Assembly: GCF_053078305.1 (NCBI RefSeq)
Contig: NZ_CP166875.1
DNA length: 64,000 nt
Strand: one strand, 5' to 3'
From: a plasmid
Below the pieces are notes generated by a model. It worked only from the letters and a program-made list of their open reading frames with translations. It was not told the DNA's origin and made no database searches. Every line of letters starts with the position of its first letter. The first letter of the stretch is position 1. Shown here piece after piece: positions 41,311 through 63,559 of the stretch. A program made the position numbers and the translations under genes.

Positions 41311-41385
41311 TATCATGGTGACGATATCTGAATCGTTATATACTGTGTATATACGTGGTAATGACGAGGTGATAAATGGCACAGG

Positions 41386-42458: not shown

Positions 42459-42470
42459 GAGGGATGATAT

Positions 42471-42884: not shown

Positions 42885-42890
42885 TTGAAT

Positions 42891-43472: not shown

Positions 43473-43484
43473 TTTTAGTCTCAC

Positions 43485-43628
43485 TTATCGTTTTTGACAC
43501 TGCATGGTATCATAATGTACAAAATACGATTTTTGAAACCTGCTTTTATGCTGTTTTAGACAGGTATCAGATATCTTAATATTTGATACTAGCCATATTT
43601 AACAAATATTTAGCATTTTGGTAAATGT
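43485..43628. promoter_or_regulatory. res site region between tnpR and tnpA
   Basis: divergent intergenic region with TGTC..GACA-type dyads. Confidence 0.5.
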
Positions 43629-46600: not shown

Positions 46601-46667
46601 CAGTCTTTTGGAGGGAGTAGACCCACTAAGTGATATCGGAGATATTGAGTCCGAATATGACGGTTAA
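43629..46667 (+). CDS. tnpA: Tn3-family transposase TnpA
   Basis: 1012 aa, AT-rich, typical size for the family. Confidence 0.9.
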   Translation: MQKYKKRISILTKSEINELYQVPSFNPVERDEFFSLDISLKREIDKIINIESRVYLILITGYFRYKPVIPEFTLKDVKRDVKYIIQTYYKNESTNLNLNIPKSTKYRLVKRMLSTLGFEQLTPSIKNELSERLNDVATICMEPKYIFDELLAFLGQRRIALPGYSTVQNLVSDALNFERKRTINILSKRIYPATAQKITSIIHDDGILNSIRGYNYSTRDFSASEIENELRTHNVISSIYYEIKDIINSLGISQGNMEYYATIVKHSTTFRLKRHPKWQGILYLCCYLYFRYREINDKIITAFRYLVKKHKDASVLFAKARATEEIDLINKKLKFASKIFNFFVDSNIEDSIPFGYVREKVFSLISKDDMHLVSEFFDKNKIDVIEYQWQYIDSHHLKIANSIRKLFLAIDIVYDNEKSVIGQQITAAKDDLRGKGKLDAKDLRVIHPSEKNYIVKEGEINTQRFEFHMYSRVSNHLENGVFYAAESEQNKRLEDDLIERSYWHKNKSILIEKTGLERLITPITQTLNELENTFSDKLARITIGINSDANEFVKKQPHSNRLQWSLASKKWKTSIDNPIYNQIKNIGIVDVMKYVNNETNFLSVFNAISSRKNNLEADYNDLLACIFGNGANYGVHRMASASDRSIGILRDVNDKFIRPETTGMANTVISDAIANLSVYKYWTINEDSPFGSVDGQKHTCRINTFKARYSAKYFRKGKGVSAMTLVSNHVPLSTVVISPNEYEGHFAFDLLYNNTSEIQPKSLATDNHGINNVNFAILDIFGYQFSPRYAKFKKIFNELFDVILESDKLIIKLKKQFNFKLIEHEWENIQHIICSLSRKTTIQSTVVKKLSNTKRSNKTLAALREYDRVIKCIYVLDYADNKTLRQFVQQALNRGEAYHQLRRAIASVNGNQFRGGNDYQIDQWNDCARLIANCVIYYNSAILSRLVEKFEKENNKKAIDVLANLSPVAWRHILLGGNYSFEDQVAITNLDSLLEGVDPLSDIGDIESEYDG

Positions 46668-46733
46668 CAACATGATAAATAATGGTTTTTATGCTAAGAG
46701 TGAGACTTTTGGAGGAAATGGGCGCAGAACCCC

Positions 46734-46957
46734 TGTATCTGCCGTTCGGTTTTTGCACGAAGTTTTTCTGAGCTTTTACCGAACTGCATACGTTGCAGTT
46801 TCGCAACCAGCGCCTTCAGCCGGTTGATTTCGGAAGCATAAGCCGCCACCCGCTGTGAGAGCAGGCGGTTGTATTCAGCCATCTGGCGGATGGTGTCCTG
46901 TTGCGTCTGCAACAGTGCCCGCAGGCGGGCGTTCTCATGAGCAAGTGAGGTGTCCAT
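46734..46957 (-). pseudogene. IS66-family TnpC N-terminal fragment truncated by Tn3-family insertion
   Basis: leucine-zipper N-terminus MDTSLAHENARLRALL...; ORF ends at Tn IR. Confidence 0.7.
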
Positions 46958-46976
46958 ATCCTCACTTTACAACGGG

Positions 46977-47324
46977 TTATATGCGGATTCCAGCGCGTTC
47001 CGTTCGTTTCGGGTGCTTCCAGTTGATACCTTCAAGAAGCATGGATAACTGAGCCGGAGTAAGGTGCACCTTGCCGTCACGGGTGACTGGCCAGACGAAG
47101 CGGCCCCGCTCCAGGCGTTTGGTGAAGAGGCACAGTCCGTCACTGTCAGCCCACAACACTTTTATCTGGTCACCCCGGCGTCCGCGGAAGATGAACAGGT
47201 GTCCGGAGAACGGGTCATCCTTCAGGACGTTCTGAACTTTTGATGCCAGGCCGTTAAAGCCATTTCGCATATCGGTGATACCTGCAACCAGCCAGATACG
47301 CGAACCTGCAGGGAGAGATATCAT
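46977..47324 (-). CDS. IS66-family TnpB (orf2)
   Basis: 115 aa, typical IS66 orf2 size and sequence. Confidence 0.8.
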   Translation of the reverse strand: MISLPAGSRIWLVAGITDMRNGFNGLASKVQNVLKDDPFSGHLFIFRGRRGDQIKVLWADSDGLCLFTKRLERGRFVWPVTRDGKVHLTPAQLSMLLEGINWKHPKRTERAGIRI

Positions 47325-48001
47325 CAGTGGCTGCTCCCTTTTATTTCGCGGATAAGTGTCTGTAATAACGCCGGCGTCAGTTTACCTTTAAGCCTGAGAG
47401 TTCCGGCCGGCAGAACCAGCTCACAACACAGACTGTCGGACGGTGTATTTATCTGCTCTGGTTCCTGTGCGGGGGCCGGGATTTTATTATCCGGCTCCGG
47501 CGTTAACGTCACGGGAAGCAGTGCCGGCATATTTTTTCCGGAAGGCAGCAGGCCACCTTTCCGGTATTGATGGCGCCAGTTGAAGAGCAGGTTATCGTTG
47601 ATTCCGTTTTCCCGGGCGATCTGCGCCACACAGGCTCCGGGCTGCAGTGACTGCTCCACTAAGGCGATTTTAAACTCATAAGGGAAGTTGGGCCGCCGGG
47701 GACGTTTTTTTACCACGGGGGCTTCGGATATAACGGTGCTTTCAGGACGTACGACTGGTACCGTGGAAAATTGTCCGTAAAGGCAGGCATCAAGTTCCTG
47801 CTCCGACATGCCTGCGGGCAAAGGCCACGAAAGGCCAGCTCTCCGAAAGCGCACGAACATACTACAAACTGTTGATTTTGGTACACCCAGGCGACGCCCG
47901 GCCACAACCCGGGGTAAATGTTCTTCAAAGTGAAGACGTAAAGCTTCAGTGATCCAGGTCCGGTGTTTCATACGATAGTGTCCATTAAAAATGATGGACA
48001 T
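47324..48001 (-). CDS. IS66-family TnpA (orf1)
   Basis: contains KRPRRPNFPYEFKIALVEQSL...LLFNWRHQYR HTH region; start uncertain. Confidence 0.7.
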   Translation of the reverse strand: MSIIFNGHYRMKHRTWITEALRLHFEEHLPRVVAGRRLGVPKSTVCSMFVRFRRAGLSWPLPAGMSEQELDACLYGQFSTVPVVRPESTVISEAPVVKKRPRRPNFPYEFKIALVEQSLQPGACVAQIARENGINDNLLFNWRHQYRKGGLLPSGKNMPALLPVTLTPEPDNKIPAPAQEPEQINTPSDSLCCELVLPAGTLRLKGKLTPALLQTLIREIKGSSH

Positions 48002-48329
48002 TATTTTTGTAGAGCCGGAGGAAACAGACCAGACGGTTTAAATGAGCCGGTTACAAACAAATTCGCTTCATAAATTTCATAGTGCAGACCACATCCCCAA
48101 TGAGCCTGCTTTTCCAGCCTGCTGATCACCACATCAGCCCGGATAACATCAAAGGGATTGCGGGAATGAATATTACGAATAAAGCCATCGGTACGTGCTG
48201 CTGACATATTTCTGCCCATCTTTAATACACCTCTGTTTTTTGCCCCCATCATCTGTTGAGTTTCGGGAGCCGCGGTTTTGACGTTTTGCGGGGACCTGCC
48301 TTTTGTTCCCTCCGGTATTCACCATCACC

Positions 48330-48720
48330 TGTTTGAGAACCTTCGCCGCAAGGGGCATCACTGCCACGGCCGGAAACGACTGTCCGGGGGCAGACCGCAA
48401 AAGTTTTTGCCTGCTTTTGGGCAAAAAGTTTTGCGGGATGTGCATTTCACCCCTGGACTGGCGGAGACGGTTGTGGCTGTCTTTGCCCCCGGCGACAGGG
48501 GCTTAAACAGGTGTATGGCACCGGACACAACAACGGGCAGGGACCCGCCGCAACGACGAAGAGCGCGTGCGCGAAACGGCGTTGCCCCTTACATCCCGGC
48601 GGCCTTTTGCCGGGATGCCAGGAGCGCAGGCCACGGCGCGACAGAGGCGGCGCGACCGGAACGGTCGCTGCAAGCCCGGGGTTTCGCGTCAGGGATGGAA
48701 GCCCGCCAGGGCGGAGACAG
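48330..48720. promoter_or_regulatory. GC-rich hairpin repeat, copy 1 (candidate Frpo/ssi-type single-strand element)
   Basis: homologous to 53740-54010; core GAGCGCAGGCCACGGCGCGACA.AGGCGGCGCGACCG...CGGTCGCTGCAAGCCCGG. Confidence 0.5.
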
Positions 48721-49078
48721 CTTCGCTGGCTCCGTTCACGACAGCCCGCCCCGCCTGGGGGACGCCCGGAAAAGGCATAAGCAGGAGAACAACAAAACAG
48801 ACAATAATCAGGGCAGCAGTAATCAGAGTCAGAACAGGAGGAAAAAGAGAATAATCAAAGGGAAGGTGATGTGATTTCCGACAGGTCATAAACAGAGAAG
48901 GCGGGGGAAAAGAACGGGCGCCGCAGGCGCGCGTTCATCCCCGTTCCCGGAGGGAATCGGCCTTCCTGGCAGTCTGGTTGTTCATGCTGCTGCAATGTCA
49001 GCAAGGAGAAAGGGGCCACCGGCGAACCAGCAGCCCCTTTATAAAGGCGCTTCAGTGCAGTCAGACCAGCATCAGCCC

Positions 49079-49104
49079 TGAAAAGGCGGGCCTGCGCCCG
49101 CCTC
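49079..49104 (-). terminator. rho-independent terminator of hok transcript
   Basis: GGCGGGCGCAGGCCCGCC hairpin followed by T-tract on - strand. Confidence 0.6.
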
Positions 49105-49111
49105 CAGGTTG

Positions 49112-49270
49112 CTACTTACCGGATTCGTAAGCCATGAAAGCCGCCACCTCCCTGTATCCGTCTCTGTAACGAATCTCGCACAGCGATTTTCGTGTCAGAT
49201 AAGTAAATATCAACAGTGTGAGACACACAATCAACACACACCAGACAAGAGAGCTGCGTGGTAGTTTCAT
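49112..49270 (-). CDS. hok: Hok host-killing type I toxin; overlapping mok frame extends to 49411
   Basis: [52 protein letters not shown]. Confidence 0.85.
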
Positions 49271-49544
49271 GGCCTTCTTCTCCTTGCGCAAAGCGCGGTA
49301 AGAGGCTATCCTGATGTTGTCAGACATATGGGATGCCTCGTGGGTTAATGAAAAATTAACTACGGGGCTATCTTCTTTCTGCCACACAACACGGTAACAA
49401 ACCACCTTCACGTCATGAGGCAGAAAGCCTCAAGCGCCGGGCACATCATAGCCCATATACCTGCACGCTGACCACACTCACTTTTCCTGAAAATAACCCG
49501 CTCATTCAGGCTGTTTACGGGTAATCTGTGTGATTGTTGCCGCA

Positions 49545-50264
49545 TCACGCCGCCTCCCGGAGTTTGTTCGGCACCATCCACCGCTCCATCTCACGGACAG
49601 CGTGACCCGCCTCCCTTGCTGCCATACCTGCCTCTGCGATGACCTGCCAGAATGGCATATCCTGCCACTGCCAGCGTTCCATCCCGGCCAGTGACGGAAA
49701 ACGCTCACCCCACTGCCAGAACAGGGTTTCCAGGTCATGCTCTGCCACCCGGTCACTCCAGCGTGCATACCAGCTTCCGACTGTTTCCGGTGAATGGAAC
49801 GCCAGTTCGATTTCAGCCTGAGCGACCAGCGTCTGGTACGCACGGGCTTTCTGCTCTGCCTCCCGTGCCTGCTGGCGGCTGTACTTCTGCATGACCAGCA
49901 CGGATTTATGGCGACTGCGTTCCCTGACACGGAACCGCACCGACGGGAACAACCGCTCTGCTGCATCACCGGGAAGGGGAAGGAGGCAGACCTCGCCCTG
50001 TGTTTCAATCAGCACATCGACGGCATACAGCCACTGAGAACGGTTGCCGCGCAGTTCTTCTGCGGTCAGGGACGGCATGAAAAATCGCAGGTCAGACAGC
50101 GAAATCCTGCGGCTTCCGTTCAGACAGCGGAAAAACGCCCCCGCATACGGATATTCCGCCAGCGTGTTACCCTGGTGGCGGCGTTTTTCTGTCTCCGCCA
50201 CCGCCCGCCATGCGGCCTGTTGCTCTGTGCTGAGAGGAACCAGTGCCTGTGAACGTGCGCTCAT
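49545..50264 (-). CDS. psiA: PsiA plasmid SOS-inhibition protein
   Basis: 239 aa matching remembered F PsiA. Confidence 0.9.
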
Positions 50265-50695
50265 GCCTGACCTCCTTCCGCCATCAGGATATGGATGATG
50301 TCACTGACGCTGTATCCCTGTTCATCCAGTGATGCCGCCAGTGCCAGTGAATGGCTGACAGCTTCCGGTGCAAACCGCCGCTGCACCTGAACCACCGCAA
50401 ACGGCTCACCACCGGCATTCACCAGAACCAGCACCCAGACCTGAGAGACATCGCCCGGTGAACATAACGCCAGGTGAAAACGTTCGTGGGCAGGCGTGAA
50501 ACGGACCTGGACGGGGAAAAAGCCGCCGAACTCGCTGCCGTACTCGCCATTCATCGTCCAGTTGTCCGGCGCATCCAGTTCCCGCATCACGGCGTGTGTC
50601 AGCTCACGGCGTTCATCACTTCCGGCAGCCCGGATATCTTCATATTCCTGTGCGCTCATGGTCTGTAATACATTCAGGGTCAGTTCAGTTTTCAT
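50261..50695 (-). CDS. psiB: PsiB RecA inhibitor
   Basis: [66 protein letters not shown] matches F PsiB. Confidence 0.9.
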
Positions 50696-50749
50696 CACGG
50701 TATCTCCCTTGCTGCCGCCCCGTCTCCGGCGGGGCGGTGTGGTTGTTCA

Positions 50750-52708
50750 TCAGGCGGCATCAGCCAGGTTATCGGCGCGTTCAGTGGCATCCGTCTGTGG
50801 ACGTGGTGAACCCATCCAGCCAGGCACCCAGCGGTTGTCTTTCATGTGGAACTCTGCATGTTCAGCGGCATCGCCTTTCTTCATCTTCTCCGCGTCCCGT
50901 GCGGCACCGGACAGTCCGGCATCATTCAGGGCATCGATAATCTGCGGCTTTTTCAGGTGACCGAAGAAGTTTGCTTTTGTCGGCTGCCACCAGTCACGCA
51001 TGTGAAAGCCGATGGCGCTCTCCAGCGAGTCCAGCGGACTGCGTGACGTGTGACCATACTCGCGGGTCTGAACGCCGTGGATGCTGCACGCGGTGCAGAA
51101 ACTGAGCAGTGATAACAGCACGTCCTGGCTGAGTGACAGGAACGTCGTCATGTCCCGTGCCCATCCCTCCGGTAACAGGGCAGCAAGACGGGCTTTTTCT
51201 GCCATCATCGCCATGAATGCGGCACCGTCCTTCCCCGATGGCGCATCGCTGGTCAGCGAATAATGTTTACATTCCAGGCTGATTTGTGCTGGTTTACTGT
51301 ACGCTCCGCTGCCAAACACATTCAGGCAGAGCGTCCATGCCAGCAGTGCCAGAGATTTGTCCGGTTGCTGCATGAGTGCCGCCTGGACTGCCAGCGTGCG
51401 TTCGGAAGACATTTTCGTCAGCAGTGGCAGACTGATTTCCTCCACTGACGCTTTCTCCTGCACCTGTTCCGTGCGGTCAGCGTCGTCAGTCACGTCATCT
51501 TCACTGCGCAACTGCACACCACGCTGGACACACACATTACCGTAACGCCAGGACACCACCACGCCACTTCCGGCACGCATCTCCGGCGTCCACGCCCTGA
51601 CCTTCGCCATGCAGTCAATCAGCTTCATTTCTGCTGCCAGCAGGTCAGATTCCTCACACTGGTTTTCCAGCGCGTCGTAACGCATCATCAGTTCGTTCAG
51701 GCGTTCTTCTTCTGCCTCCGTCAGCACCGCTTCCGGCTCCGGCAGGTTGCGGTATGCCCGGGAATCTTCACGGCACTCACCGACAGGCTCCATGCGTCCG
51801 GCGCACCATTCCCAGCCTTCGGCTTCCCGAAGGTGTTCAGCGACAGCCTGGAGTTTTTCCAGCAGGGCGGCATCGAGCGCCACGCAGTCCACATAGCCAC
51901 CCTCGTCATCGCTGAACAAATCAGTACGCAGTTCGTCAGGTGAGAAAGCATCAGCCCCCACGAAGCGGAATTTAGTGTTGTCCTTCACCGCCACTTCACT
52001 TTCCGTAATCAGATTGCGGATAACCCGCACATCCGGTTTACCGCCCCATCCTGACTGGCAGGCCGCTTCAAACACCTGCACCTGACGCGCGGTGTCGTTC
52101 TCCAGCGCCAGCGCCTGACAGTGCTCGGTGGTGATGCGGTCTTCTGCCAGCGCATCGAGGATGACAGGCGCAAGGTCTGCCAGTTTCAGCATTCGCTGAA
52201 CGTGGCGGGGCGAATAACCCAGCAAATCACCGATTTGTGCAGGTGTTTTGCCTTCCTGCGCCATTGCACGGAATCCGGCAATCTGTTCGGCAGGGTGCAT
52301 ATCCCGACGATGACCGTTCTCGGTCATCGATGCGGCAGTCGCCAGCTCCTGCGGAATGACCTTCACACGGACAGGCCAGTCAACCTGAATGATGTCACGC
52401 TCTGCCAGCATGTTGAGTGCTGCCAGTCGGCGACCACCTGCGGCGACACCGTAACGGTCACCTGGCAGGGCATGAACAACCAGATTCTGTAACAGGCCGA
52501 CACCTTTAATGGAGTCCGCCAGTTCGCTGACGGACTCCGCAGAATACGGCACCGTGCGCACATTCAGCGGAGACTTAATCAGCGAGGCCAGCGGCACGCT
52601 CACTTCCTCCGTCTGCGCCAGCAGGGCCGACAGGACTGTTTCCTGCGTTTTTGCAGGTTTACGGCTGGATTTACGCTCCGTTTTTGCCTTAGACTCTGTA
52701 ACTGACAT
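50750..52708 (-). CDS. ParB-like nuclease domain protein of leading region
   Basis: ~652 aa with N-terminal ParB/Srx fold motif; position between ssb and psiB as in F. Confidence 0.8.
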   Translation of the reverse strand: MSVTESKAKTERKSSRKPAKTQETVLSALLAQTEEVSVPLASLIKSPLNVRTVPYSAESVSELADSIKGVGLLQNLVVHALPGDRYGVAAGGRRLAALNMLAERDIIQVDWPVRVKVIPQELATAASMTENGHRRDMHPAEQIAGFRAMAQEGKTPAQIGDLLGYSPRHVQRMLKLADLAPVILDALAEDRITTEHCQALALENDTARQVQVFEAACQSGWGGKPDVRVIRNLITESEVAVKDNTKFRFVGADAFSPDELRTDLFSDDEGGYVDCVALDAALLEKLQAVAEHLREAEGWEWCAGRMEPVGECREDSRAYRNLPEPEAVLTEAEEERLNELMMRYDALENQCEESDLLAAEMKLIDCMAKVRAWTPEMRAGSGVVVSWRYGNVCVQRGVQLRSEDDVTDDADRTEQVQEKASVEEISLPLLTKMSSERTLAVQAALMQQPDKSLALLAWTLCLNVFGSGAYSKPAQISLECKHYSLTSDAPSGKDGAAFMAMMAEKARLAALLPEGWARDMTTFLSLSQDVLLSLLSFCTACSIHGVQTREYGHTSRSPLDSLESAIGFHMRDWWQPTKANFFGHLKKPQIIDALNDAGLSGAARDAEKMKKGDAAEHAEFHMKDNRWVPGWMGSPRPQTDATERADNLADAA

Positions 52709-52773
52709 AGTTAGTACCTCCCAAAACGGTAATAATGATTGTCTGCCGGACGCGTTCCCGTCCGGCACCTCTC

Positions 52774-53049
<276 letters not shown>

Positions 53050-53064
53050 TCACAGTCAGGCCAG

Positions 53065-53592
53065 TCAGAACGGGATATCGTCTGAAAATCCGTAATCCTC
53101 CCCCTCCGGCGGCTGAGGCTGAGGCTCGGGCTGCGCGGCCTTACGTCCACGGCCTTTCGTTTTCGCGCCACTTTTTTTCGTCGCGTCAGCACTCTGTGGC
53201 TGCCCATTCTGCTGAGGCTGCGGTTGTGCCTGAGCGTTCTGCTGTGGTGCAATCCCCAGCATCTGCATGGTGCCCGTGGTCTTAACAAGAATTTCAGTGA
53301 CGTAACGGGTGATACCGTTATCTTCCCAGCTACGGGTTCGGAGTTGCCCCTCGATATAGACCTGCGCGCCCTTGCGCAGATATTCACCAGCCACTTCCGC
53401 GAGCTTGCCGAACAGCACCACGCGGTGCCATTCCGTCTGCTCCCGCATCTCCCCCGTCTTTTTGTCGCGCCAGCTTTCTGATGTGGCCACCTGCAGGTTT
53501 GCCACTGCGCCCCCGTTGGGGATGTAACGGACCTCCGGATCATTGCCCAGACGCCCGACGAGGATGACCTTGTTGATACCACGTGCACTCAT
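53065..53592 (-). CDS. ssb: plasmid single-stranded DNA-binding protein
   Basis: [25 protein letters not shown]-fold; acidic C-terminal tail DDIPF. Confidence 0.9.
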
Positions 53593-53739
53593 GAGAACCT
53601 CCTGACTGAAAGATGTGAGATAAACCGGATACCGGAGACGGGACGTTCATATGCCCCTTCAGAGGAGCGAAAGCTCCTCCTGCCGTCCACTTCTTCGGGG
53701 TTTCTCCCCGCAGTGGACCTTTCCGATGGGGGCCCGTTT

Positions 53740-54010
53740 ACCGCCTCACGGGACAGCTGTCCGGGGGCGGACGCAAAATTTTTTGCCGGGTTCATGGCTA
53801 AAAATTTTGTGGCCGGTATATCTTCCCCTGGACTGATGGAACGGGAGGTGGTTACGTCTGCCCCCCGGAAAGTCCACAGCGGGAAACAGGCCGCAGAGGT
53901 GGCGGCAGAAGAGGAGCGCAGGCCACGGCGCGACAAAGGCGGCGCGACCGTTCCGGTCGCTGCAAGCCCGGGTTTTCACGCATCGGACCGTAGCGACAGC
54001 CCGAAACCGC
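53740..54010. promoter_or_regulatory. GC-rich hairpin repeat, copy 2, upstream of ssb
   Basis: homologous to 48330-48720. Confidence 0.5.
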
Positions 54011-54292
54011 GCCAGCGGGTTCGGCGGAGACTGGCGGGTGCGCCAGCAGTTGCCTGTCGGAGTCGGGCCTGACGACCGGATGCCGCCAGGCAGCCGGGAG
54101 CCGAAGGGGCGCATGTGTAAGAAGGTTCTTTAACGACAGGTCTGTAACAGGTACTTCCTGAAACAACGCCTGTCACCAACAGGAAGGGTAACGGGCGACG
54201 CGCCAGCGTGGCCCGCATCCCTTCCGGCAGGCGCCAGCCTGCCAGGGGTTTTCGCGCGGGCTGACAGGCGGCCTCCACCGCCTACCCCTGTA

Positions 54293-54484
54293 TCACCTGT
54301 GCCTGCTGCCCTGAAGGATGTAGTGACCACCGAGGAAAACCGCCTGCTGATTCGCCACAAAATCACAGATTTCATCAACAATCTGCGCGGTGGTGAGCGG
54401 TTTCTGCCCCATTTCACGACGCCGCGCATTAATCACGGCTTTGTAATTGCGCAGAATTTCGCGGGTTTCCGTGCTGATATTCAT
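54293..54484 (-). CDS. hypothetical small protein
   Basis: 63 aa ORF. Confidence 0.35.
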   Translation of the reverse strand: MNISTETREILRNYKAVINARRREMGQKPLTTAQIVDEICDFVANQQAVFLGGHYILQGSRHR

Positions 54485-54903
54485 TACCCGTTCTCCCCGT
54501 CCAGCGCCTGACGCATTACCCGCATAATCTCACGTTCTTCCCTGACAAATGCGTCACCGTCGCCCCCGTTCTCGCTCCCTACAGCATGGAGGCGATAAAT
54601 TTCACTACCAGCCATCACCATCACTTTTTCCAGCAGCACCGCAGGGACTGTTACAAGACGGTTTACGCGCTTTTCCTCCATCAGTTCATTGACAATATCG
54701 GAAACAACTCTGTCACATGCGCCATATACAAAAGCATCGTCCAGCCGCTGCATGACGGTTTCCAGCTCATCGTCTGACAGGTTCCAGTCCCGGGCTATGT
54801 GGCGCACATCCCCGCGGGTCAGCACCACGGCAAAAACACATTCACTGTCCGGCACGTCTGTATTCAGCACTTCGCGGATAATTTCTTTAACAGTACAGTA
54901 CAT
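54484..54903 (-). CDS. hypothetical acidic protein (paralog of 56437-56871)
   Basis: shared LSD.E..TV..RL.D and VTVPA.LL motifs with 56437-56871 product. Confidence 0.5.
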   Translation of the reverse strand: MYCTVKEIIREVLNTDVPDSECVFAVVLTRGDVRHIARDWNLSDDELETVMQRLDDAFVYGACDRVVSDIVNELMEEKRVNRLVTVPAVLLEKVMVMAGSEIYRLHAVGSENGGDGDAFVREEREIMRVMRQALDGENG

Positions 54904-54949
54904 GTTCTCGTCTCCTTTACAGGGGCGGCATTGCCGCCCCGTCCGTTAA

Positions 54950-55375
54950 TCAGTCCAGTGCCGCGTAAATCGCGTTACATTCGGGGTGAAATTCGATGTG
55001 GCTCCACAACTGCGCATCGCGCATCCGGTAAAGCTGGGTCAGTCCTGCATCCCCGCTGTCGTGGTACAGCCACAACTGGCGGTTAATCACAAGGGAAGTC
55101 AGGATGATACCTGCGGCATCAGCACTCACAGTGCGGTCAAACCAGTTTTCACCGTTGACCAGATGAAAACGGTCGCCATCCGGCATCATGTAACCGCCAC
55201 CGTCCGGCAGGCGGATGAAATGCCAGAAGCCTCCCTGATATTCCGGCATCATTTTTTGCGCCAGCGCGTACACATACGCCTCGGCATACAGAAAATCGTT
55301 GCCAAACAGGTAAGGCAGAAAGGAGAGACGGTCGCACTCTTCAACGTTCAGAGTGACAGATTTCGCATACTGCAT
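54950..55375 (-). CDS. klcA: KlcA/ArdB-family anti-restriction protein
   Basis: 141 aa from [30 protein letters not shown]; family assignment from memory. Confidence 0.6.
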
Positions 55376-55621
55376 GGGATTTCCTCCGTTGTTCACATAT
55401 TCCGCGACACCGGGCGGTGCCGTGCCTCCAGAAAAGCCGGGCGATAAGGCGGGGATGCAAGGGCGCAAGGGAAGCCGCAGCCTGACGCACACGGCTGGCG
55501 GGAGTTGGAGGGTGAGACCGCGAAATCTGAGCGGGTGAACGACCGGAAAATCACGGCAGACGGGAAGGAGGGACCGGGTGACCGCCGCGTGCATTTTACC
55601 CTTGCATCCCCGCCAGCGTCA

Positions 55622-56392
55622 TCATTTCCGGATTTTCGCCAGTGCATCCGCCATGCTGCGGATTTCATCCCGTGCCTCCAGAACAACCTCCCGCAGAATA
55701 TCCCTGTCAAACCAGCGACGGGACGGTTCATCCGGTATACGCAGCACATCACAGACCAGACCACTGGCCAGGATATGCTCCACACACTCACAGACCAGGT
55801 ACATTTCCACCGCCGAAAAACGGGCGCCACGGTTCAGAATGGCATCGAGCACCACGGGCAGATTTTCGTCATCTTCATCAAGCCAGCAGGGGTAATCGCT
55901 TTCCTTCACGACCAGACGAAAGCGGCGCGTCTGGCGGGTCAGCAACGTCTGACCGGTGGTGGTCAGCGCCGCCCGGATACGCCGCGTATCTTCTGCCACC
56001 TGGTAACAGATGCTTCGTACTGCATTGCGCACCGCATCAAGAACTGCCCTGATTTCTTCCTCCGTCAGCCATTCACCGGCATACGGGAAAGACACCTGCG
56101 TTCCGTCTGCCGGAAGTACCGGCAGCGCCTGCCACTGGCTGCCGGACAGAACAAGTTCCGCTCCGGTTCCGGTCAGTTTCTGAATGGCGGAGGCCAGGTG
56201 CGGCGGCAGTACGCCATCATGGCGGCTGATAAGTAACGTCGCCAGCCGGGATATATCCAGTCGCACATAAATGCTGATCCAGCCCGGATAGTGCGGATTC
56301 AGTTGTTCAATATCCGTCTCTTCCGGCCAGCCCTGCGCCAGCAGCAGGTTACGGGCGTGGCGACAAACCAGTGCATTCAGCGTTTTGTTCAT
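55622..56392 (-). CDS. hypothetical protein
   Basis: 256 aa ORF from MNKTLNALV. Confidence 0.45.
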
Positions 56393-56436
56393 GATTAATG
56401 GTCTCCCTGAATCGCCGCCCGAAGGCGGCGATAACA

Positions 56437-56871
56437 TCAGTCGTTTTCGTGTGTGTTGTTTTTCAGCAGGGCGCGGGCCTGATTAACCACCGCCTGACGG
56501 CGGGTGACGCATTCCGGGACGACGAGGCCGTTATCACGGGCGTCCCACTCACGTTTCCACAGTGCCTGTTCGGCGGTCTGAATCAGGGACGCCAGCAGTT
56601 CAGCCGGGACGGTCACCTGGCGGTTTTCGCTCACGTTGCTGATAATCTCCATCGCCACGCCGGAAGAAATACCGGACTCAGTCCGCTGGTCTTCCGGGAT
56701 GTCCTCCAGGCGCACCAGGACGGTCCTGATTTCATGATCGGACAGGGAAATATCCATTCCGTCAGCGAGGGCCTGAATCTCTTCCGGGGACCAGACAACC
56801 AGCATCAACGGCGTGTCTCCCGGATACTTTACTGCCAGCGCCCGGCAGAGCGTTTCGCATGTTCCGTACAT
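56437..56871 (-). CDS. hypothetical acidic protein (paralog of 54484-54903)
   Basis: 144 aa, shared motifs with 54484-54903 product. Confidence 0.5.
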
Positions 56872-56882
56872 ACTCTCTCCCC

Positions 56883-57104
56883 TCAATCTTTGAAGCAGGA
56901 ATCCAGTTCCAGAATTTCGGTATATGCCTCCATCAGGAGGCGGTTTGCGCGAAACAGCGTCTGACGCACCAGACGTTCCGGCAGGGTGTCAGCATTAAAG
57001 CTGTACCGCCGCTCCATCTCATTCATGGTTGTACGCAGGTCGCACATGGCATTGGCCACCTCCGCCACTTCGGCGCGAAGGTTTTCATGTCCGGCATAGT
57101 TCAT
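56883..57104 (-). CDS. hypothetical small protein
   Basis: 73 aa ORF. Confidence 0.35.
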   Translation of the reverse strand: MNYAGHENLRAEVAEVANAMCDLRTTMNEMERRYSFNADTLPERLVRQTLFRANRLLMEAYTEILELDSCFKD

Positions 57105-57788
57105 TTACGCAGCCTCCGGCATAAACCAGTCATCATTTGCGGCCCCCTGCTGCATGGCCCGCTGTACGGCAGCCAGACGTTGCTGTCCGGCACGGTGATA
57201 CTGCTCAAGCAGCTCGATACCGATATACCGGCGTCCGGACTGGAGGGCGGCGACGCAGGTTGAGCCGCTGCCTGCAAACGGGTCCAGCACAATCGCGTTC
57301 GGATGTGTGAAGCTCTCAATCAGTGGTTGCAGGCTGGTAACGGGCTTTTCCGTCGGGTGATGGCGGTTGCCCGAATATTTCCAGCCCAGCACATCCGGCA
57401 GCGGGTTACGGGGCCGGGCCGGACTGCCCTTTGCCAGGATGTAAGCGCATTCGTGGCGGTACGCGACATACACAGATTTGGATGTGTAGTTTTTGGTGAA
57501 GACCAGGTGCCCAACCACGCTGAATCCGGCGCGTTTCCAGGCCGCCATAAAGCGGTCAATACGGTGCCAGCCGTAGAAGCTGACCATCAGCGCGTCTTTT
57601 TTGAGTACGCGGTACATCTCATTGCTGGCAGGTTGCAGCCAGTCATCATTAACGTCACCGGCAATGGTGCGCCCGGAACGGTCACGGAAACCGACGAGAT
57701 ATGGCGGATCGGTTAATATGAAATCAATGGCGTTATCAGGAATCGTGGCCATAACACGCACGCAGTCACCCAGGATAAAACGGGACAT
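57105..57788 (-). CDS. orphan N6-adenine DNA methyltransferase
   Basis: DPPY catalytic motif, FAGSGSTCVAA AdoMet-binding motif, no adjacent restriction enzyme. Confidence 0.8.
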   Translation of the reverse strand: MSRFILGDCVRVMATIPDNAIDFILTDPPYLVGFRDRSGRTIAGDVNDDWLQPASNEMYRVLKKDALMVSFYGWHRIDRFMAAWKRAGFSVVGHLVFTKNYTSKSVYVAYRHECAYILAKGSPARPRNPLPDVLGWKYSGNRHHPTEKPVTSLQPLIESFTHPNAIVLDPFAGSGSTCVAALQSGRRYIGIELLEQYHRAGQQRLAAVQRAMQQGAANDDWFMPEAA

Positions 57789-58171
57789 AACAGCTCCTTC
57801 TCTTACAGAGGGCACCGGGAGGGCACCCCTGTGGTGCCCGTTCCCCGCTGCCTGTGGGCTGTACACCGCGTCCGGTAACGGGTCAGGCCGACCGTGGAAT
57901 ACCGCAGCCGTCGTCTTTTTGACGGCAAGGTTATGCCGCGAAAGCGGCTTGAAGGGCGTTCATCAGAAAAGGGCGACGGGCTGGCGTACACTGTCACCGA
58001 CGCCAGCCGGGAGCGGTAAAAGCGCCCGTCCCGTGCCCGGCCGGACGCGGGACACTGACCACAGGCAGCGTTTATGCCGCGCCGCATCAGCCGGCGCAGT
58101 AAAAAGAGGAGCACAGCGACATCCTTTACCGGAAAAGAAACGGGCGGTTGCCCGCCCGTCTCCGTCATACT

Positions 58172-59098
58172 TCATCCGCCATAATGCGCCACCTTGTCGA
58201 CTATCCACGCAGGTCCGGTGACTTCCGGCAGCTCATCGTCATCTGTCGGGGAAGACCATTCCAGTTCCCCCCACAGCACATCAACGAGCTCTCCGCGCTC
58301 ATACAACTGCCAGCCACAGAAATCACAGCCCTGTTCGGCATACCAGTGCTCCAGCGTGCAGCTGAAACGGCGGCTTAATTCTGCAATAACGTCGCTTTCC
58401 GGCTGACACCACGGCGTGTCGAAATCAACCTGAATGAAGTTGTCTCCCTGACTACTGATATTCACCTCATACCCCACAGGCCACTTCACGCCATACCGTT
58501 CCGTATACCAGTGATATGCAGAAGGAACACCGTTCAGAACACCACCGTTAAAGCCATTCACTTCAACATCCAGGCGGGTCGGCAGAACCGTCAGCAGGTC
58601 AAACGGCATGGTTTTTTCCGGCAGTACGTTGTCACACAGACGGTTCCACCACACCGATACATCCTCGTTACTCCAGAAGCCACACCAGTCACCTCTTTTT
58701 GCGGTGAAAAGTGCGGTGATGGTATCCCTGACATCGTCCGGTAATCCTTTCCAGCGACGCTGTCCAGTACCGCTCTGCAGCCAGAGTTCATGCAGCATCA
58801 GGCAGTTTTGCTCATCCAGCAGTACACCGTCCTGCAGGTGTGTCAGCCAGCGGGTGAACGCGATATTCTCCGGCGATACAACGCCACGTCCGGCAGCCGT
58901 CAGTCCGGGGCATGGTTCAAACCGCACATCTTCAGTGGTCTGCAGAAGTCCGGCACTTCCGGCCAGAAACAGCTGAATACCTTCATTTGTGGCGCGGCGA
59001 TAAAGCGGTGTGACTGCACCGCTGGCCAGTCGTTTAATCTCAGCAATCTGTGCCGGTTCACCAGAAAAATGCATACGATTTGAGCACCAGTTTGGCAT
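58172..59098 (-). CDS. hypothetical Cys/Trp-rich protein
   Basis: 309 aa from MPNWCSNRMHF; no recognised catalytic motif. Confidence 0.45.
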   Translation of the reverse strand: MPNWCSNRMHFSGEPAQIAEIKRLASGAVTPLYRRATNEGIQLFLAGSAGLLQTTEDVRFEPCPGLTAAGRGVVSPENIAFTRWLTHLQDGVLLDEQNCLMLHELWLQSGTGQRRWKGLPDDVRDTITALFTAKRGDWCGFWSNEDVSVWWNRLCDNVLPEKTMPFDLLTVLPTRLDVEVNGFNGGVLNGVPSAYHWYTERYGVKWPVGYEVNISSQGDNFIQVDFDTPWCQPESDVIAELSRRFSCTLEHWYAEQGCDFCGWQLYERGELVDVLWGELEWSSPTDDDELPEVTGPAWIVDKVAHYGG

Positions 59099-59450
59099 GG
59101 GAATTCTCCTCTCACATGCGGCCTCCATCAGGCCGTGCCGCACCTGTAACCGGGCGACCGCATACGAATGCAGGTGCGGCCCCGAAGCCGCATCGCGTGG
59201 AGGAGGAACGACGAAACGTGACCGGGTGAGGAGGCTGGCGACAGCGACACACTTGCATCGGATGCAGCCCGGTTAACGTGCCGGCACGGCCTGGGTAACC
59301 AGGTATTTTATTCACAGAACCGTGCGCAAAATGCTGTGGATAAGCTGGACACAGCAGTCCACAGCAGGCATACAGCCACCCCCTCAGAGAATTGAGCGTT
59401 TTTTAGTCACAATAATGACATTTGACTGTGTGGATTCAGTTATTAGAATG

Positions 59451-59466
59451 CTGTATATACATACAG
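59451..59466 (+). promoter_or_regulatory. LexA box CTGTATATACATACAG upstream of impC
   Basis: matches CTGT-N8-ACAG SOS box consensus. Confidence 0.75.
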
Positions 59467-59489
59467 CAATAGAAAAGGGAGATGAGAAC

Positions 59490-59738
59490 ATGATCCGCAT
59501 TGAAATTCTTTTCGACCGCCAGAGCACAAAAAACCTCAAATCAGGCACACTTCAGGCGCTACAGAATGAAATCGAACAACGTCTGAAACCACACTACCCG
59601 GAAATCTGGCTGCGTATAGACCAGGGCAGCGCCCCGTCTGTATCTGTCACAGGAGCCCGCAACGACAAGGATAAAGAACGTATCCTGTCTCTGCTGGAAG
59701 AAATCTGGCAGGACGACAGCTGGCTGCCTGCAGCATGA
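59490..59738 (+). CDS. impC: ImpC
   Basis: 82 aa MIRIEILFDRQSTKN...; first gene of impCAB. Confidence 0.75.
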   Translation: MIRIEILFDRQSTKNLKSGTLQALQNEIEQRLKPHYPEIWLRIDQGSAPSVSVTGARNDKDKERILSLLEEIWQDDSWLPAA

Positions 59739-60172
59739 GTACCGTTTATCACCGTCCGGCTGACCCTTCAGGCGATGACAGTTACGTGCGACCGTTGTTT
59801 GCCGATCGTTGCCAGGCCGGTTTTCCTTCGCCTGCCACTGATTATGCTGAGCAGGAACTGGATCTGAACAGCTATTGCATCAGCAGACCTGCAGCCACCT
59901 TCTTTCTGCGCGCCAGCGGTGAATCGATGAACCAGGCTGGCGTGCAGAATGGTGATCTGCTGGTAGTGGACAGGGGCGAAAAACCACAACACGGGGACAT
60001 CGTTATCGCTGAGATCGACGGTGAGTTCACCGTCAAACGACTGCTGTTGCGCCCACGCCCGGCACTGGAGCCGGTTTCAGACAGCCCGGAATTCCGCACA
60101 CTGTATCCGGAAAACATCTGTATTTTTGGTGTTGTCACTCACGTGATACACAGGACGCGGGAGTTACGCTGA
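59735..60172 (+). CDS. impA: ImpA/UmuD-like self-cleaving mutagenesis protein
   Basis: 145 aa, LexA-like S24 peptidase motif GESM...K. Confidence 0.85.
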   Translation: MSTVYHRPADPSGDDSYVRPLFADRCQAGFPSPATDYAEQELDLNSYCISRPAATFFLRASGESMNQAGVQNGDLLVVDRGEKPQHGDIVIAEIDGEFTVKRLLLRPRPALEPVSDSPEFRTLYPENICIFGVVTHVIHRTRELR

Positions 60173-61446
60173 TGTTTGCACTGGCTGATATCAACAGTTT
60201 CTACGCCTCATGTGAAAAAGTTTTCCGCCCGGACCTTCGCAACGAACCGGTCATCGTACTCAGCAATAACGATGGCTGTGTGATCGCGCGCAGCCCGGAG
60301 GCAAAAGCCCTTGGCATCAGAATGGGGCAGCCCTTGTTTCAGGTGAGACAAATGCGCCTGGAGAAGAAAATACATGTATTTTCCAGCAATTATGCGCTGT
60401 ACCACAGCATGAGCCAACGGGTCATGGCTGTTCTGGAGTCGCTTTCTCCCGCAGTTGAGCCCTACTCAATTGATGAAATGTTTATTGATTTGCGGGGGAT
60501 AAATCATTGCATCTCTCCGGAGTTTTTTGGTCATCAGCTCAGGGAACAGGTAAAGAGCTGGACAGGACTCACCATGGGGGTGGGCATTGCGCCTACAAAA
60601 ACGCTGGCTAAAAGTGCACAGTGGGCAACAAAGCAATGGCCACAGTTTTCCGGTGTGGTCGCGCTGACGGCAGAAAACCGTAATCGGATCTTGAAGCTAC
60701 TGGGACTGCAGCCAGTTGGTGAGGTCTGGGGAGTAGGACACAGACTGACGGAAAAGCTGAATGCGCTGGGTATTAACACAGCACTGCAGCTGGCGCAGGC
60801 TAACACGGCATTCATCCGGAAAAACTTCAGCGTCATTCTTGAGCGTACGGTACGCGAACTCAACGGCGAGTCCTGCATATCCCTGGAAGAAGCACCACCG
60901 GCAAAACAGCAGATTGTCTGTAGTCGCAGTTTTGGTGAACGAATCACAGACAAAGATGCCATGCACCAGGCTGTTGTTCAGTATGCAGAGCGGGCCGCAG
61001 AGAAACTACGTGGGGAGCGTCAGTATTGCCGGCAGGTGACGACATTTGTACGGACATCCCCCTTTGCAGTAAAAGAACCCTGTTACAGCAATGCCGCTGT
61101 GGAAAAGCTTCCATTGCCCACACAGGACAGCCGGGACATTATTGCCGCCGCATGCAGAGCCTTAAACCATGTCTGGCGTGAAGGGTACCGCTATATGAAG
61201 GCAGGAGTCATGCTGGCTGATTTCACACCATCGGGTATAGCGCAGCCGGGATTATTTGATGAAATCCAGCCCCGTAAAAACAGTGAAAAGTTAATGAAAA
61301 CACTCGATGAACTGAACCAGTCGGGAAAAGGGAAAGTGTGGTTTGCGGGGCGAGGAACCGCCCCTGAATGGCAAATGAAACGGGAAATGTTGAGTCAGTG
61401 TTATACAACTAAATGGCGAGATATTCCCCTGGCCAGGCTGGGTTAG
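60172..61446 (+). CDS. impB: ImpB/UmuC-like Y-family DNA polymerase
   Basis: 424 aa, MFALADINSFYASCE N-terminus typical of UmuC. Confidence 0.85.
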   Translation: MFALADINSFYASCEKVFRPDLRNEPVIVLSNNDGCVIARSPEAKALGIRMGQPLFQVRQMRLEKKIHVFSSNYALYHSMSQRVMAVLESLSPAVEPYSIDEMFIDLRGINHCISPEFFGHQLREQVKSWTGLTMGVGIAPTKTLAKSAQWATKQWPQFSGVVALTAENRNRILKLLGLQPVGEVWGVGHRLTEKLNALGINTALQLAQANTAFIRKNFSVILERTVRELNGESCISLEEAPPAKQQIVCSRSFGERITDKDAMHQAVVQYAERAAEKLRGERQYCRQVTTFVRTSPFAVKEPCYSNAAVEKLPLPTQDSRDIIAAACRALNHVWREGYRYMKAGVMLADFTPSGIAQPGLFDEIQPRKNSEKLMKTLDELNQSGKGKVWFAGRGTAPEWQMKREMLSQCYTTKWRDIPLARLG

Positions 61447-61447
61447 T

Positions 61448-61864
61448 TCAGTCATCTCCGAACATATTTTCAGCGTTTCTTCTGGTCTGGTCTTCACCGT
61501 CATTTCTCGACAGACTCTGCTCTGTAAGAGGAGTACTGCAATCCACAGACGTATGGAGACCAGATTGTTTTTCCAGTAATTCAAGCAATTTCTTTTCAAC
61601 CGAAAAAGCACCTGGTATCACGCTGGAAATCACCTTATTAATATCATCCAGAGTCGTATTTTCTGTCAGTAACTCCGATATCAGCAAAGGAAGACGTTTA
61701 TCTATAGCTGCAAACGCCGCACCAGTAACTAACATCGCGCGCATGAAACGTCCCCGCTCCTTCAGTTTTTCATTTGCAATGAGCTCATCTGCTATCTTAT
61801 CTCCTGTCCGTTCATCCGGGAAAAGTTCAAATGAGCAGCGTCTGGATTTATTTTCATCACTCAT
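61448..61864 (-). CDS. parR: ParR/StbB centromere-binding adaptor
   Basis: 138 aa downstream of parM, similar to R1 ParR. Confidence 0.7.
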   Translation of the reverse strand: MSDENKSRRCSFELFPDERTGDKIADELIANEKLKERGRFMRAMLVTGAAFAAIDKRLPLLISELLTENTTLDDINKVISSVIPGAFSVEKKLLELLEKQSGLHTSVDCSTPLTEQSLSRNDGEDQTRRNAENMFGDD

Positions 61865-62837
61865 TAGTCACACCACCTTTCATTTTTATCATTCCCATGA
61901 CTAAATCAAACTGCGGGGATGAGCTCAGATAAAAGCGCTCATCAGGAACCTTAGTCAGGTTCTTCACAGCCTCGGCCACAATTTCAGCCCCACCACCAAC
62001 ACACATTACATGTGTATAGTCGGTGAAACGGCTGATGACATCATTAACTCGTTTAATAAGCAACTTCTGCCGTTCATTGATAACATTAATGATAGACTCA
62101 CGCTGTTCAGCATTATAAATGCGACGGGAAAGGTAGTCAGGTTCATTACGGTGCACAATGATATTGTCAGCCTGGAATGAGCTCACTCTTGTATTAGCAT
62201 GTACAGCCATCTGTTCCTTAACCCCGGATGTAATCAGGGACACGCCGATATTCGGATCACACCAGGTTTTTGTAATCCCTGTCATTTTGCTACGAACATG
62301 CGACACATCAAGAGTTGTACCACCGAGATCTACGATCAAAAGGGATTCATCATCCTCAAGCCCCGCAAGAACACTGAAACCAGCGGGAATACTTTCAGGA
62401 AGAACGGAAACACTGCGAATAACAAATGCATCACTCCCCTGCACCCGTACTTCACGCATCACATTTTTTTTCTTTCTTTCAATGTTTTGCTTATTTTTCT
62501 GATTGTTGGCGTCAAGGTATTCAGAGATCGGCAATGTGACGATGACATCAACAGGCTGCGCTTTCAGGCCGGTCTGCTGTAGCGCATGCTGAATGGCCAC
62601 AACATTCACATCACTGTACTGATAGCGTGTTTCAGTCGTTACGACAGCATCAGCACTTAATGGATCAAATGAAAACTTCTCGCCGTCGATCTCGTAATTA
62701 GCCGGGGCAGCATCATCCAGTAAACTAAAAGACCATTCCGGTTTAAAGCTGTTAGGGCTGATTAACGTTTTCACGTCACCATCCTCCAACCAGGCAAGTT
62801 TAATGTTGGTAGAACCATCATCAATAAAGATTTTCAT
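61857..62837 (-). CDS. parM: ParM/StbA actin-like segregation ATPase
   Basis: MKIFIDDGSTNIKLAW... clear similarity to R1 ParM. Confidence 0.85.
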   Translation of the reverse strand: MKIFIDDGSTNIKLAWLEDGDVKTLISPNSFKPEWSFSLLDDAAPANYEIDGEKFSFDPLSADAVVTTETRYQYSDVNVVAIQHALQQTGLKAQPVDVIVTLPISEYLDANNQKNKQNIERKKKNVMREVRVQGSDAFVIRSVSVLPESIPAGFSVLAGLEDDESLLIVDLGGTTLDVSHVRSKMTGITKTWCDPNIGVSLITSGVKEQMAVHANTRVSSFQADNIIVHRNEPDYLSRRIYNAEQRESIINVINERQKLLIKRVNDVISRFTDYTHVMCVGGGAEIVAEAVKNLTKVPDERFYLSSSPQFDLVMGMIKMKGGVTNE

Positions 62838-63100
62838 AACCAGTCTCCGTTGCTCATAAACAAATAGAAAAAACAAACATGCTTCATACATGCAATGTAT
62901 ATTTAATTATAATGAAAAAATGGTCTTTCTGAAAGGAGAAATACAACATAAAAACACGATAAATTGCATGTGCATTGTACACACAACTTTAAGACCAGAG
63001 GAAATCATAGATACAAAAACATTATGAAGGTTATATGTAATACATAAATGCAATATAAAAACATCTTTGACATCATGGTTCAGGTTAAGGGAAAAGGAAT
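62838..63100. promoter_or_regulatory. candidate parC-like centromere/promoter region
   Basis: AT-rich region upstream of parM with reiterated ATGCAAT/ACATGC motifs. Confidence 0.35.
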
Positions 63101-63250
63101 GACATGGTGAAACTGAGAGGAAAGGAAAGCGGTGACGAATCATGTCACCATAAACAGAAAGATGTCTAATGGGGACTCTTTAGGTACGTGAAGAATCCCC
63201 ATAACGCATTTAAAAGACACACATCAGATACCCTTAAGGTATCCGATAGT

Positions 63251-63559
63251 TTATTGACCTATTGCACCATCACGTTCAAGCTTCTCTCTTATAGCCTCAA
63301 TAATATATGAGCTAAAATCCAGAGATGTTTTACTGGTCGCTTTAAGTTCCGCATGAGCTTCAAAATACGACAGCGGTATGGCCTTAAGATTCTTAGCCTT
63401 CGTCCTGGCAGCCACGGGACGACCTGAAACTTCCTCTGCACCTTCATTTGGCTGAGACGGGGCTGTTGCTGTTACGGCAGAAGAAGAAGTTTGTAATCTG
63501 GCAGAATCCACCAGGTTTTTCAGTTTTTCAGCCTGTGCACTAAATTTCGCTTTGCTCAT
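63251..63559 (-). CDS. candidate ribbon-helix-helix partition protein (ParG-like)
   Basis: 102 aa, C-terminal pattern consistent with RHH fold; inference only. Confidence 0.35.
   Translation of the reverse strand: MSKAKFSAQAEKLKNLVDSARLQTSSSAVTATAPSQPNEGAEEVSGRPVAARTKAKNLKAIPLSYFEAHAELKATSKTSLDFSSYIIEAIREKLERDGAIGQ

Follow-up and report, generated by a model that had tools for sequence, protein, structure and literature searches.

An F-like leading-region block linked in opposite orientation to an F-type transfer operon through a Tn3-family transposon

A stretch of 64,000 nucleotides from plasmid contig NZ_CP166875.1 (assembly GCF_053078305.1; hereafter, the window) carries an F-type transfer (tra) operon on the plus strand and, on the minus strand, a block of genes characteristic of conjugative leading regions, among them ssb, psiB, psiA and hok. 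A single Tn3-family transposon of 3.9 kb is all that links the tra operon to the block, and the join is most probably a recombination joint.

Orientation of the leading-region genes relative to the transfer operon

The strands proposed in a first-pass annotation of the window (plus for tra; minus for ssb, psiB, psiA and hok) were borne out by NCBIfam, Pfam, Rfam and the open reading frames (ORFs), and the orientation switch is confirmed. The transfer operon runs on the plus strand from the 3' end of traK to traX (1-33366; ORFs, with Pfam labels on contig 9 of E. coli 48, which is identical here and is described below), including traB (407-1837), traC (4993-7623), traG (19732-22575), traD (25132-27330) and traI (27330-32600). 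The genes for TraF to TraH, TraG, TraS, TraT, TraD, TraI, TraX, FinO and the IncFII RepA are all found on that strand.

The block, on the minus strand, includes hok (49270 to 49112; NCBIfam, 125 bits) with its mok/sok region (49112-49439; Rfam sok at 49268-49439, 87 bits), psiA (50264 to 49545; NCBIfam PsiA, 419 bits), psiB (50695 to 50261; NCBIfam PsiB, 277 bits), a ParB-family gene for a ParB-like protein (52708 to 50750; NCBIfam), a DUF905 gene (53007 to 52774; Pfam label on an identical public contig) and ssb, encoding a plasmid SSB (53592 to 53065; NCBIfam, 382 bits). The matches to Hok, PsiA, PsiB and plasmid SSB were all above the NCBIfam curated cut-offs. The distal genes (54293-59098, minus strand; Pfam labels on the identical contig 8 of E. 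coli 48) comprise, in order of rising coordinate, ORFs of 63 and 139 amino acids (aa), an Antirestrict/KlcA-like gene (55375 to 54950; Pfam), a 256-aa ORF (55622-56392), DUF1380, YubE, an N6_N4 DNA methylase gene (57788 to 57105; Pfam and NCBIfam PRK13699), a 70-aa ORF and DUF1281 (59098 to 58172; Pfam).

Two long hairpins resembling Frpo/ssi elements were predicted on the minus strand by folding of single-stranded DNA, one downstream of hok (48240-48900; z = -9.6) and the other upstream of ssb (53600-54180; z = -8.6; repeat family D1/D2). The former is homologous to three dispersed repeats in the leading region of plasmid pFHI_NMBU_11_02 and has a core of 69 nt in common with 53912-53980. Both occupy the places of the ssi repeats in the reference plasmids and are putative promoters.

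The first-pass annotation had bounded the block at 49112-59143. The strand given was right, yet the co-oriented segment begins already at 48057, with an ORF fragment and the Frpo-like hairpin, and on the distal side the inverted synteny runs on via impCAB (plus strand) and stbB and parM (minus strand) past the end of the window. The fragment (48057-48216, minus strand) is the 5' part of an ORF (MSAARTDGFIRNIHSRNPFDVIRADVVISRLEKQAHWGCGLHYEIYEANL...) interrupted by the insertion sequence ISCro1, and marks the edge of the surviving leading region on the oriT side (oriT, origin of transfer). It had no counterpart in the fetched F-like or I-complex leading regions, and its identification as a DUF932 N-terminus was ruled out by blastp and tblastn.

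Gene order was compared with that of relatives, and the norm assumed in the first-pass annotation, i.e. block and tra genes on one strand, held in every reference examined. The tra genes were co-directional with the block in pVTB933v-2 (NZ_CP178658.1), pFHI_NMBU_11_02 (NZ_CP045714.1) and four further F-like contigs, as were nikAB with the leading-region genes in two I-complex plasmids, pEC345 (NZ_CP094198.1) and pJNE170426-2 (NZ_AP027219.1). The leading-region genes of the references run into oriT. In pFHI_NMBU_11_02, the oriT reads ...CACCACCAAAAGCACCACACAC... on the tra-sense strand, which places the nicked, transferred strand on its complement; the transferred strand is therefore the template for genes on the tra strand. 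This nic-region sequence bears out the earlier reasoning that, in the window, the transferred strand would be the sense strand of the block.

The window thus holds the gene set of a functional leading region (ssb, psiB, psiA, anti-restriction, methylase and hok/toxin-antitoxin genes, with NCBIfam/Pfam matches above curated cut-offs), placed on the strand opposite to that of the tra genes, for which the transferred strand is the template. Within the window, the block does not adjoin an oriT on its first-entering side; its oriT-proximal end is cut and abuts RepFII. In a published study, the anti-defence, SSB, methylase and toxin-antitoxin genes of leading regions were encoded exclusively in the orientation that makes the transferred strand their template, and a Frpo-driven gene moved to the complementary strand or to the lagging region gave far weaker protection (Samuel et al. 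2024, PMC11541004).

The transposon at the switch point

Between RepFII and the block there is a single switch point, a Tn3-family transposon of 3,899 bp (42835-46733, plus strand). It has terminal inverted repeats of 38-40 bp starting with GGGG (about 38 bp being typical of the family), a Tn3 transposase gene of the DDE type (43629-46667, plus strand; Pfam DUF4158 and DDE_Tnp_Tn3) and an apparently intact gene for a serine resolvase of 193 aa (43472 to 42891, minus strand; Pfam Resolvase), and other plasmids and chromosomes contain it too, with 100% identity, as a self-contained unit of 3.9 kb. The exact transposase and 193-aa resolvase occur in many E. coli plasmid and chromosomal contexts, including strains of Shiga toxin-producing E. 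coli (STEC) from reindeer, and two plasmids of strain FHI_NMBU_11 carry the element with 100% nucleotide identity; given these many contexts and identical copies, it appears to be actively spreading. No target-site duplication of 5 bp was found around the copy in the window, which is flanked by AAAAG and TGTAT. This absence argues against a simple insertion and points to recombination or rearrangement after insertion.

The right end of the transposon cuts tnpC of an ISCro1 element (IS66 family) after approximately 74 codons. Of this element only the left 1,323 bp are present (46734-48054, minus strand; 99.92% identical to intact ISCro1; Pfam TnpB_IS66), comprising the truncated tnpC, tnpB (47324 to 46977), tnpA (47971 to 47324) and the left end, and with one end and a cut tnpC it is a remnant rather than an active element. 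ISCro1 had itself split an ORF just below the Frpo element on the far side of hok. Between them, the two cuts have stripped the block of all the sequence usually found from hok to oriT. A second oriT next to the block, which the first-pass annotation had offered as a way to account for its orientation, was not found in the window, where BLAST and nic-motif searches with F-type and I-type oriT regions returned chance-level matches only and no homologue.

The junction between the transposon and the ISCro1 remnant was not found by megablast in the plasmid collection or the complete E. coli genomes. A scan for exact matches to it, with each species represented by one genome, gave 0 matches, and an exact-protein lookup of the chimeric 87-aa product of the truncated tnpC was empty. 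Most of window positions 40000-64000 was found by megablast in no record of the plasmid collection or of the complete E. coli genomes. An apparently common junction of ISCro1 with the leading region in IncI1 plasmids was discarded, since in those plasmids ISCro1 lies within impB and the match was a composite of separate segments.

The two halves of the window in E. coli 48

The exact ParB-like protein of the block was found on one contig only in an index of 153 billion genes, namely JPQG01000008.1 (contig 8, 151 kb) of the STEC strain E. coli 48 (GCA_000736735.1), which is thus the sole public assembly to carry it. The exact TraI of the window is encoded in the same strain on JPQG01000009.1 (contig 9, 105 kb); it was absent from contig 8, and the exact ParB-like protein was absent from contig 9. 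In BLAST comparisons, window positions 17330-46733 were 100.000% identical to contig 9, and positions 42834-62708 were 100.000% identical to contig 8 in reversed orientation. The overlap of the two matches corresponds exactly to the transposon, of which identical 3,899 bp copies are present on both contigs. With two perfect matches overlapping at the transposon, the window equals the left flank of the element on contig 9, the transposon itself, and its right flank on contig 8.

Each contig continues beyond the transposon in a different way. On contig 9, the element is followed by the rest of the ORF160-family gene that it interrupts, then by NUDIX, dNK and radical-SAM genes and more cargo, which is 99.5% identical and syntenic to pFHI_NMBU_11_02; contig 9 is accordingly a pFHI_NMBU_11_02-like F backbone, with tra/RepFII, transposon and NUDIX cargo. 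On contig 8, the order is Rep_3, a colicin Ia remnant, parA/parM, impCAB, the block, the ISCro1 remnant, the transposon and ProQ/UvrD genes of IncK2/Z type. In the 2 kb seen of this last flank, ProQ-UvrD was 100% identical to IncK2/Z plasmids, e.g. pJNE170426-2. Exact lookups of ParM, TraB, ProQ, UvrD and a 586-aa hydrolase did not include contigs 8 and 9 among the matches listed, these proteins being very widespread or similar loci being collapsed.

On contig 9, 126 bp of the ORF160-family target gene are directly duplicated, with the transposon between the two copies (excerpt 13106-13231; window 42708-42833), the left copy being approximately 95% and the right copy approximately 99.4% identical to pFHI_NMBU_11_02. 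The duplication thus derives from two alleles, which indicates an earlier crossover inside the same transposon. Among the four known flanks of the element on contigs 8 and 9 (AAAAG, ACTGT, TATTG and TGTAT), no pairing yields a matching target-site duplication.

The two sides of the window also differ in their relatedness to pFHI_NMBU_11_02. Identity to this plasmid is 98.5-99.97% for the window's F backbone (99.97% over window positions 1-6399), and the block is only 92.6-96.4% identical to its leading region. The ParB-like protein of pFHI_NMBU_11_02 was not found in E. coli 48 by exact lookup. The exact ImpB encoded beside the block occurred on the E. coli 48 contig and in one other assembly, and, among the fetched loci, the alleles of the 256-aa ORF, the methylase and DUF1281 were matched exactly only on the E. 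coli 48 contig. StbB, ParM and the 102-aa ORF beside the block are very common alleles. With its near-unique ParB-like, ImpB and other alleles, the block appears to represent a rare lineage.

Origin of the joint

On these observations, the linkage most probably arose by a crossover within the transposon, between the contexts represented by contigs 9 and 8. Such a crossover would have taken place either in vivo, giving a cointegrate (or an inversion, if both copies lay in one molecule), or in silico during assembly, and the block would be what is left of another backbone's leading region, attached to the F backbone by way of the transposon. This reading is preferred because the switch lies inside a repeat that is identical in the two contexts and there are no breakpoints in unique DNA, and also because none of the flanking pentamers can be paired, an exchange has occurred before on contig 9, and the block is less identical than the F backbone to the reference. 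If the linkage arose by a crossover in the repeat, the orientation of the block relative to tra is an accident of the orientations of the transposon copies. What the window presents is not a new plasmid design: it is a recombination joint of an ordinary kind, associated with a transposon in a mosaic plasmid, or else an artefact of its assembly.

Several points weigh against this interpretation. The window shows a single transposon copy, whereas its presumed partner and the reciprocal joint would lie outside the DNA seen, and the joint is known only from assembled sequence. A leading region of the F backbone's own is at most hinted at by size, the distance from repA to traC being 72.1 kb on contig 9 and 73.6 kb in pFHI_NMBU_11_02. 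Furthermore, F-like leading regions are mosaic, and an identity of 93-96% is by itself no proof of foreign origin.

The crossover may have happened entirely in the assembly, if two separate plasmids carried copies of the transposon and the assembly switched between them within the repeat of 3.9 kb, in which case the inverted block would exist only in silico. Each half matches a different contig of the same strain at 100.000% identity, with the switch exactly in the identical repeat, and on each of the draft contigs the sequence extends by more than 10 kb past either end of the transposon. A true cointegrate, moreover, would hold two direct copies of the element, each with an apparently intact resolvase gene, and Tn3-family cointegrates whose res sites are in direct repeat are expected to be resolved quickly when the resolvase is intact. 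Taken together, this expectation and the long flanks of the draft contigs favor an artefact or a minority form. On the other hand, the older E. coli 48 draft could equally be the erroneous assembly, and contig 9 is itself recombinant at the transposon, so that real exchange does occur. A pure assembly chimera is therefore possible, though on balance rather unlikely. The caution in the first-pass annotation that the contig might be misassembled across the IS66/transposon junction is live, as the join appears to depend on the traversal of a 3.9 kb repeat common to two contigs.

The same flank evidence would be expected from a real cointegrate of an F-like plasmid of the contig 9 type and a second plasmid of the contig 8 type, formed by homologous recombination or as a transposition intermediate. 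RepFII lies on the tra side and a Rep_3 initiator on the block side (contig 8, approximately 9 kb past the window), contig 8 having, besides this initiator of its own, an I-complex backbone flank, while contig 9 matches a complete F plasmid of 108.7 kb (pFHI_NMBU_11_02) in content and size. Two rep genes are no proof of two plasmids, because IncF plasmids are often multireplicon. With direct res sites and an intact resolvase the fusion should resolve, which would make it a minority form unless stabilised; only one joint was seen, and the reciprocal one was not. Such a cointegrate is considered unlikely.

The first-pass annotation had proposed that the block was inverted, plausibly by the IS66 or the Tn3-family element, and thereby lost early expression. 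Both elements are indeed at the breakpoint and the loss of early expression follows, but a simple flip in situ of the plasmid's own leading region fits poorly with the identity values (92.6-96.4% for the block vs. 98.5-99.97% for the backbone) and with the separate contigs of E. coli 48. An inversion in situ would require two inverted copies of the transposon in one large multireplicon plasmid, the arc with its own leading region being flipped by recombination between the copies or by intramolecular replicative transposition into tnpC of ISCro1; the draft and the window would then be two isomers. The geometry agrees, since with the draft orientation (tra and block both on the plus strand) the copies are inverted and a flip gives exactly the window, and the gene order of the window is that of the canonical circle (pVTB933v-2) with the arc from rep to oriT reversed. 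Inverted res sites are not resolved, and both isomers would be stable. However, the draft has the two copies on separate contigs (of 105 and 151 kb), and contig 9 resembles a complete plasmid of the pFHI_NMBU_11_02 type. The exact TraI and ParB-like proteins are each exclusive to one contig, and the block is not of the lineage of the F backbone. Taken together, these points make an inversion in situ distinctly unlikely.

The union of contigs 8 and 9 in one replicon of 256 kb, broken inside traC, was also considered and judged unlikely, although the 10.4 kb of contig 8 left over would be just enough for the segment from oriT and traM to the truncated traC. Such a join would hold only if the end of UvrD coincided with the border of the fetched locus, and the remainder of ISCro1 could not be accommodated. 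The hypothetical 81-aa product of a traC cut at the contig end was not on record.

It was further considered whether the orientation of the block suits another transfer system, with an I-complex (IncK2/Z-type) oriT and nikAB on the contig 8 backbone. The block and ProQ/UvrD have the same orientation on contig 8; ProQ/UvrD match pJNE170426-2 at 100% identity, and in that plasmid ProQ, UvrD, the leading region and nikAB share one strand. Against this, the exact UvrD of those plasmids was not found on contig 8 among the matches listed, only 2 kb of that flank were seen, and the window contains no oriT. In addition, the linkage in the window separates the block from the IncK2/Z-type flank, and on contig 8 the block would be approximately 25 kb or more from such an oriT, behind the ISCro1 remnant and the transposon. 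A second system of this kind is accordingly regarded as very unlikely to account for the orientation.

Resemblance of the block to known systems

The block has the same internal order as F-like leading regions (F and R100; pVTB933v-2 and pFHI_NMBU_11_02), namely DUF1281, methylase, antirestriction, ssb, DUF905, ParB-like, psiB, psiA and hok/sok, and as in the block, Frpo/ssi-like hairpin repeats precede ssb and follow hok in these references. On its distal side, impCAB (59490-61446, plus strand), encoding the DinI-like ImpC, the UmuD-like ImpA and the UmuC-like ImpB (60172-61446), diverges from the block like in reference plasmids, and is followed on the minus strand (61448-63559) by stbB (61864 to 61448), parM (62837 to 61857) and a 102-aa ORF (63559 to 63251). 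Past the window, on contig 8, the synteny continues with ParA, an integrase and the colicin Ia remnant before the Rep_3 initiator. This distal side (impCAB, stbB-parM, parA and integrase) is shared with pVTB933v-2. The difference lies in strand and in the oriT-proximal end: in the F-like references the block is on the tra strand and leads onward via small ORFs, DUF932 and SLT into oriT and traM, whereas in the window it is on the opposite strand and ends in the ISCro1 remnant and the transposon, followed by RepFII in place of oriT.

The I-complex plasmids (IncI1 and IncK2/Z; pEC345 and pJNE170426-2) share the co-oriented series parM/stbB-impCAB-DUF1281...ssb-ParB-psiB-psiA at approximately 94% nucleotide identity to the window. 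After psiA they have ardA and then oriT-nikAB, in contrast to the window, which has an F-like hok/sok and no oriT.

Replicative transposons of the Tn3 family (Tn3, gamma-delta/Tn1000) cause cointegrates, inversions and adjacent deletions. The element in the window resembles them in its GGGG-starting inverted repeats of 38-40 bp, DDE transposase and divergent resolvase, in the identical copies found at joints and in the lost duplication of 5 bp.

With respect to transfer from an F oriT, the geometry of the block is like that of engineered F variants, on the wrong strand and distal (Samuel et al. 2024, PMC11541004). Those variants are deliberate single-gene constructs with a measured loss of protection, whereas the arrangement in the window is known from sequence and may not exist in cells.

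Other features of the transfer side

Downstream of the tra operon, finO, a nuclease gene, a hok/sok-like locus, copB (37172-37432), the CopA RNA (37549-37639, minus strand) and the RepFII repA1 (37712-38581) occupy positions 33853-38581, all on the plus strand except CopA, with 98.5% identity to pFHI_NMBU_11_02. Rfam matches above the gathering score were also obtained on the minus strand for AS-pc02 (35193-35335), AS-traG (20472-20557) and AS-traI (30179-30255), and the CopA, AS-traG and AS-traI RNAs are antisense to plus strand genes. The hok/sok-like locus beside RepFII (36478-36888, plus strand; Rfam sok at 36593-36749) is a second type I toxin-antitoxin locus of this kind, on the tra strand and distinct from the hok/sok of the leading-region block.

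Within the tra operon, an island of low GC content (approximately 40% vs. 52% around it) was observed between traU and trbC, at about 9611-12100, with four ORFs of 189, 263, 148 and 110 aa, the second on the opposite strand. No NCBIfam family was found for these four ORFs or for ORF137', to the left of the transposon by vapB.

The left flank of the transposon (39493-42834, mixed strands) is a patchwork that is 100% identical to contig 9 of E. coli 48. Two toxin-antitoxin pairs follow RepFII. The patchwork contains relE/HTH and RHH/truncated parE, together with vapC/vapB (41641-42371, minus strand) and the ORF160-family gene cut by the transposon (42471-42834, plus strand). The 3' end of parE is replaced near 40800. 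A direct repeat of 279 bp, with 94% identity between copies, is present just 3' of repA1 (39152-39428) and at 41034-41312, the latter being a second copy of the RepFII ori flank. The occurrence of this copy after a parE with a replaced 3' end indicates that recombination with a second FII-type backbone has left a further joint here. A perfect palindrome of 34 bp (ATTAATGCTAATGTATGCATACATTAGCATTAAT; 42425-42458), located between vapB and the truncated ORF160-family gene, could be an operator or a divergent promoter site.

Consequences for early expression and implications

For transfer from an F oriT upstream of traM, the block would enter the recipient late and as the non-template strand, and its putative Frpo-type single-strand promoters would lie on the strand that stays in the donor. 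In this distal, non-template position, the block is not expected, according to the published rule (PMC11541004), to give early single-strand expression of its ssb, psiB, psiA, anti-restriction and methylase genes. The loss of early F-type expression would be the same whether the joint is a chimera, a cointegrate or an inversion. If the F backbone has a leading region of its own, it would lie outside the window, and a second transfer system fitting the orientation of the block may possibly be present on contig 8.

It is highly improbable that the joint is real and stable, that the block is the only leading region of the F-like plasmid, and that the plasmid nevertheless transfers efficiently. 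Were this so, it would be a natural case of a plasmid that can do without the early expression of ssb, psiB and anti-restriction genes from single-stranded DNA, or that has a substitute for it, such as protein transfer from the donor or a second, I-type oriT on the same molecule. If the joint is real, the window would in any case be a natural counterpart to the engineered F constructs (Samuel et al. 2024), with anti-defence and SOS-inhibition genes in a non-leading position on the wrong strand, and the Tn3-family element would exemplify a site at which F-type and I-complex backbones repeatedly cross over. A plasmid specialist would find nothing surprising in these points. The main value of the finding is one of caution: a "wrong-strand" leading region here hinges on a single 3.9 kb repeat that occurs in two plasmid contexts of one strain, and linkage across such repeats is to be verified before inferences on plasmid biology are drawn from orientation.

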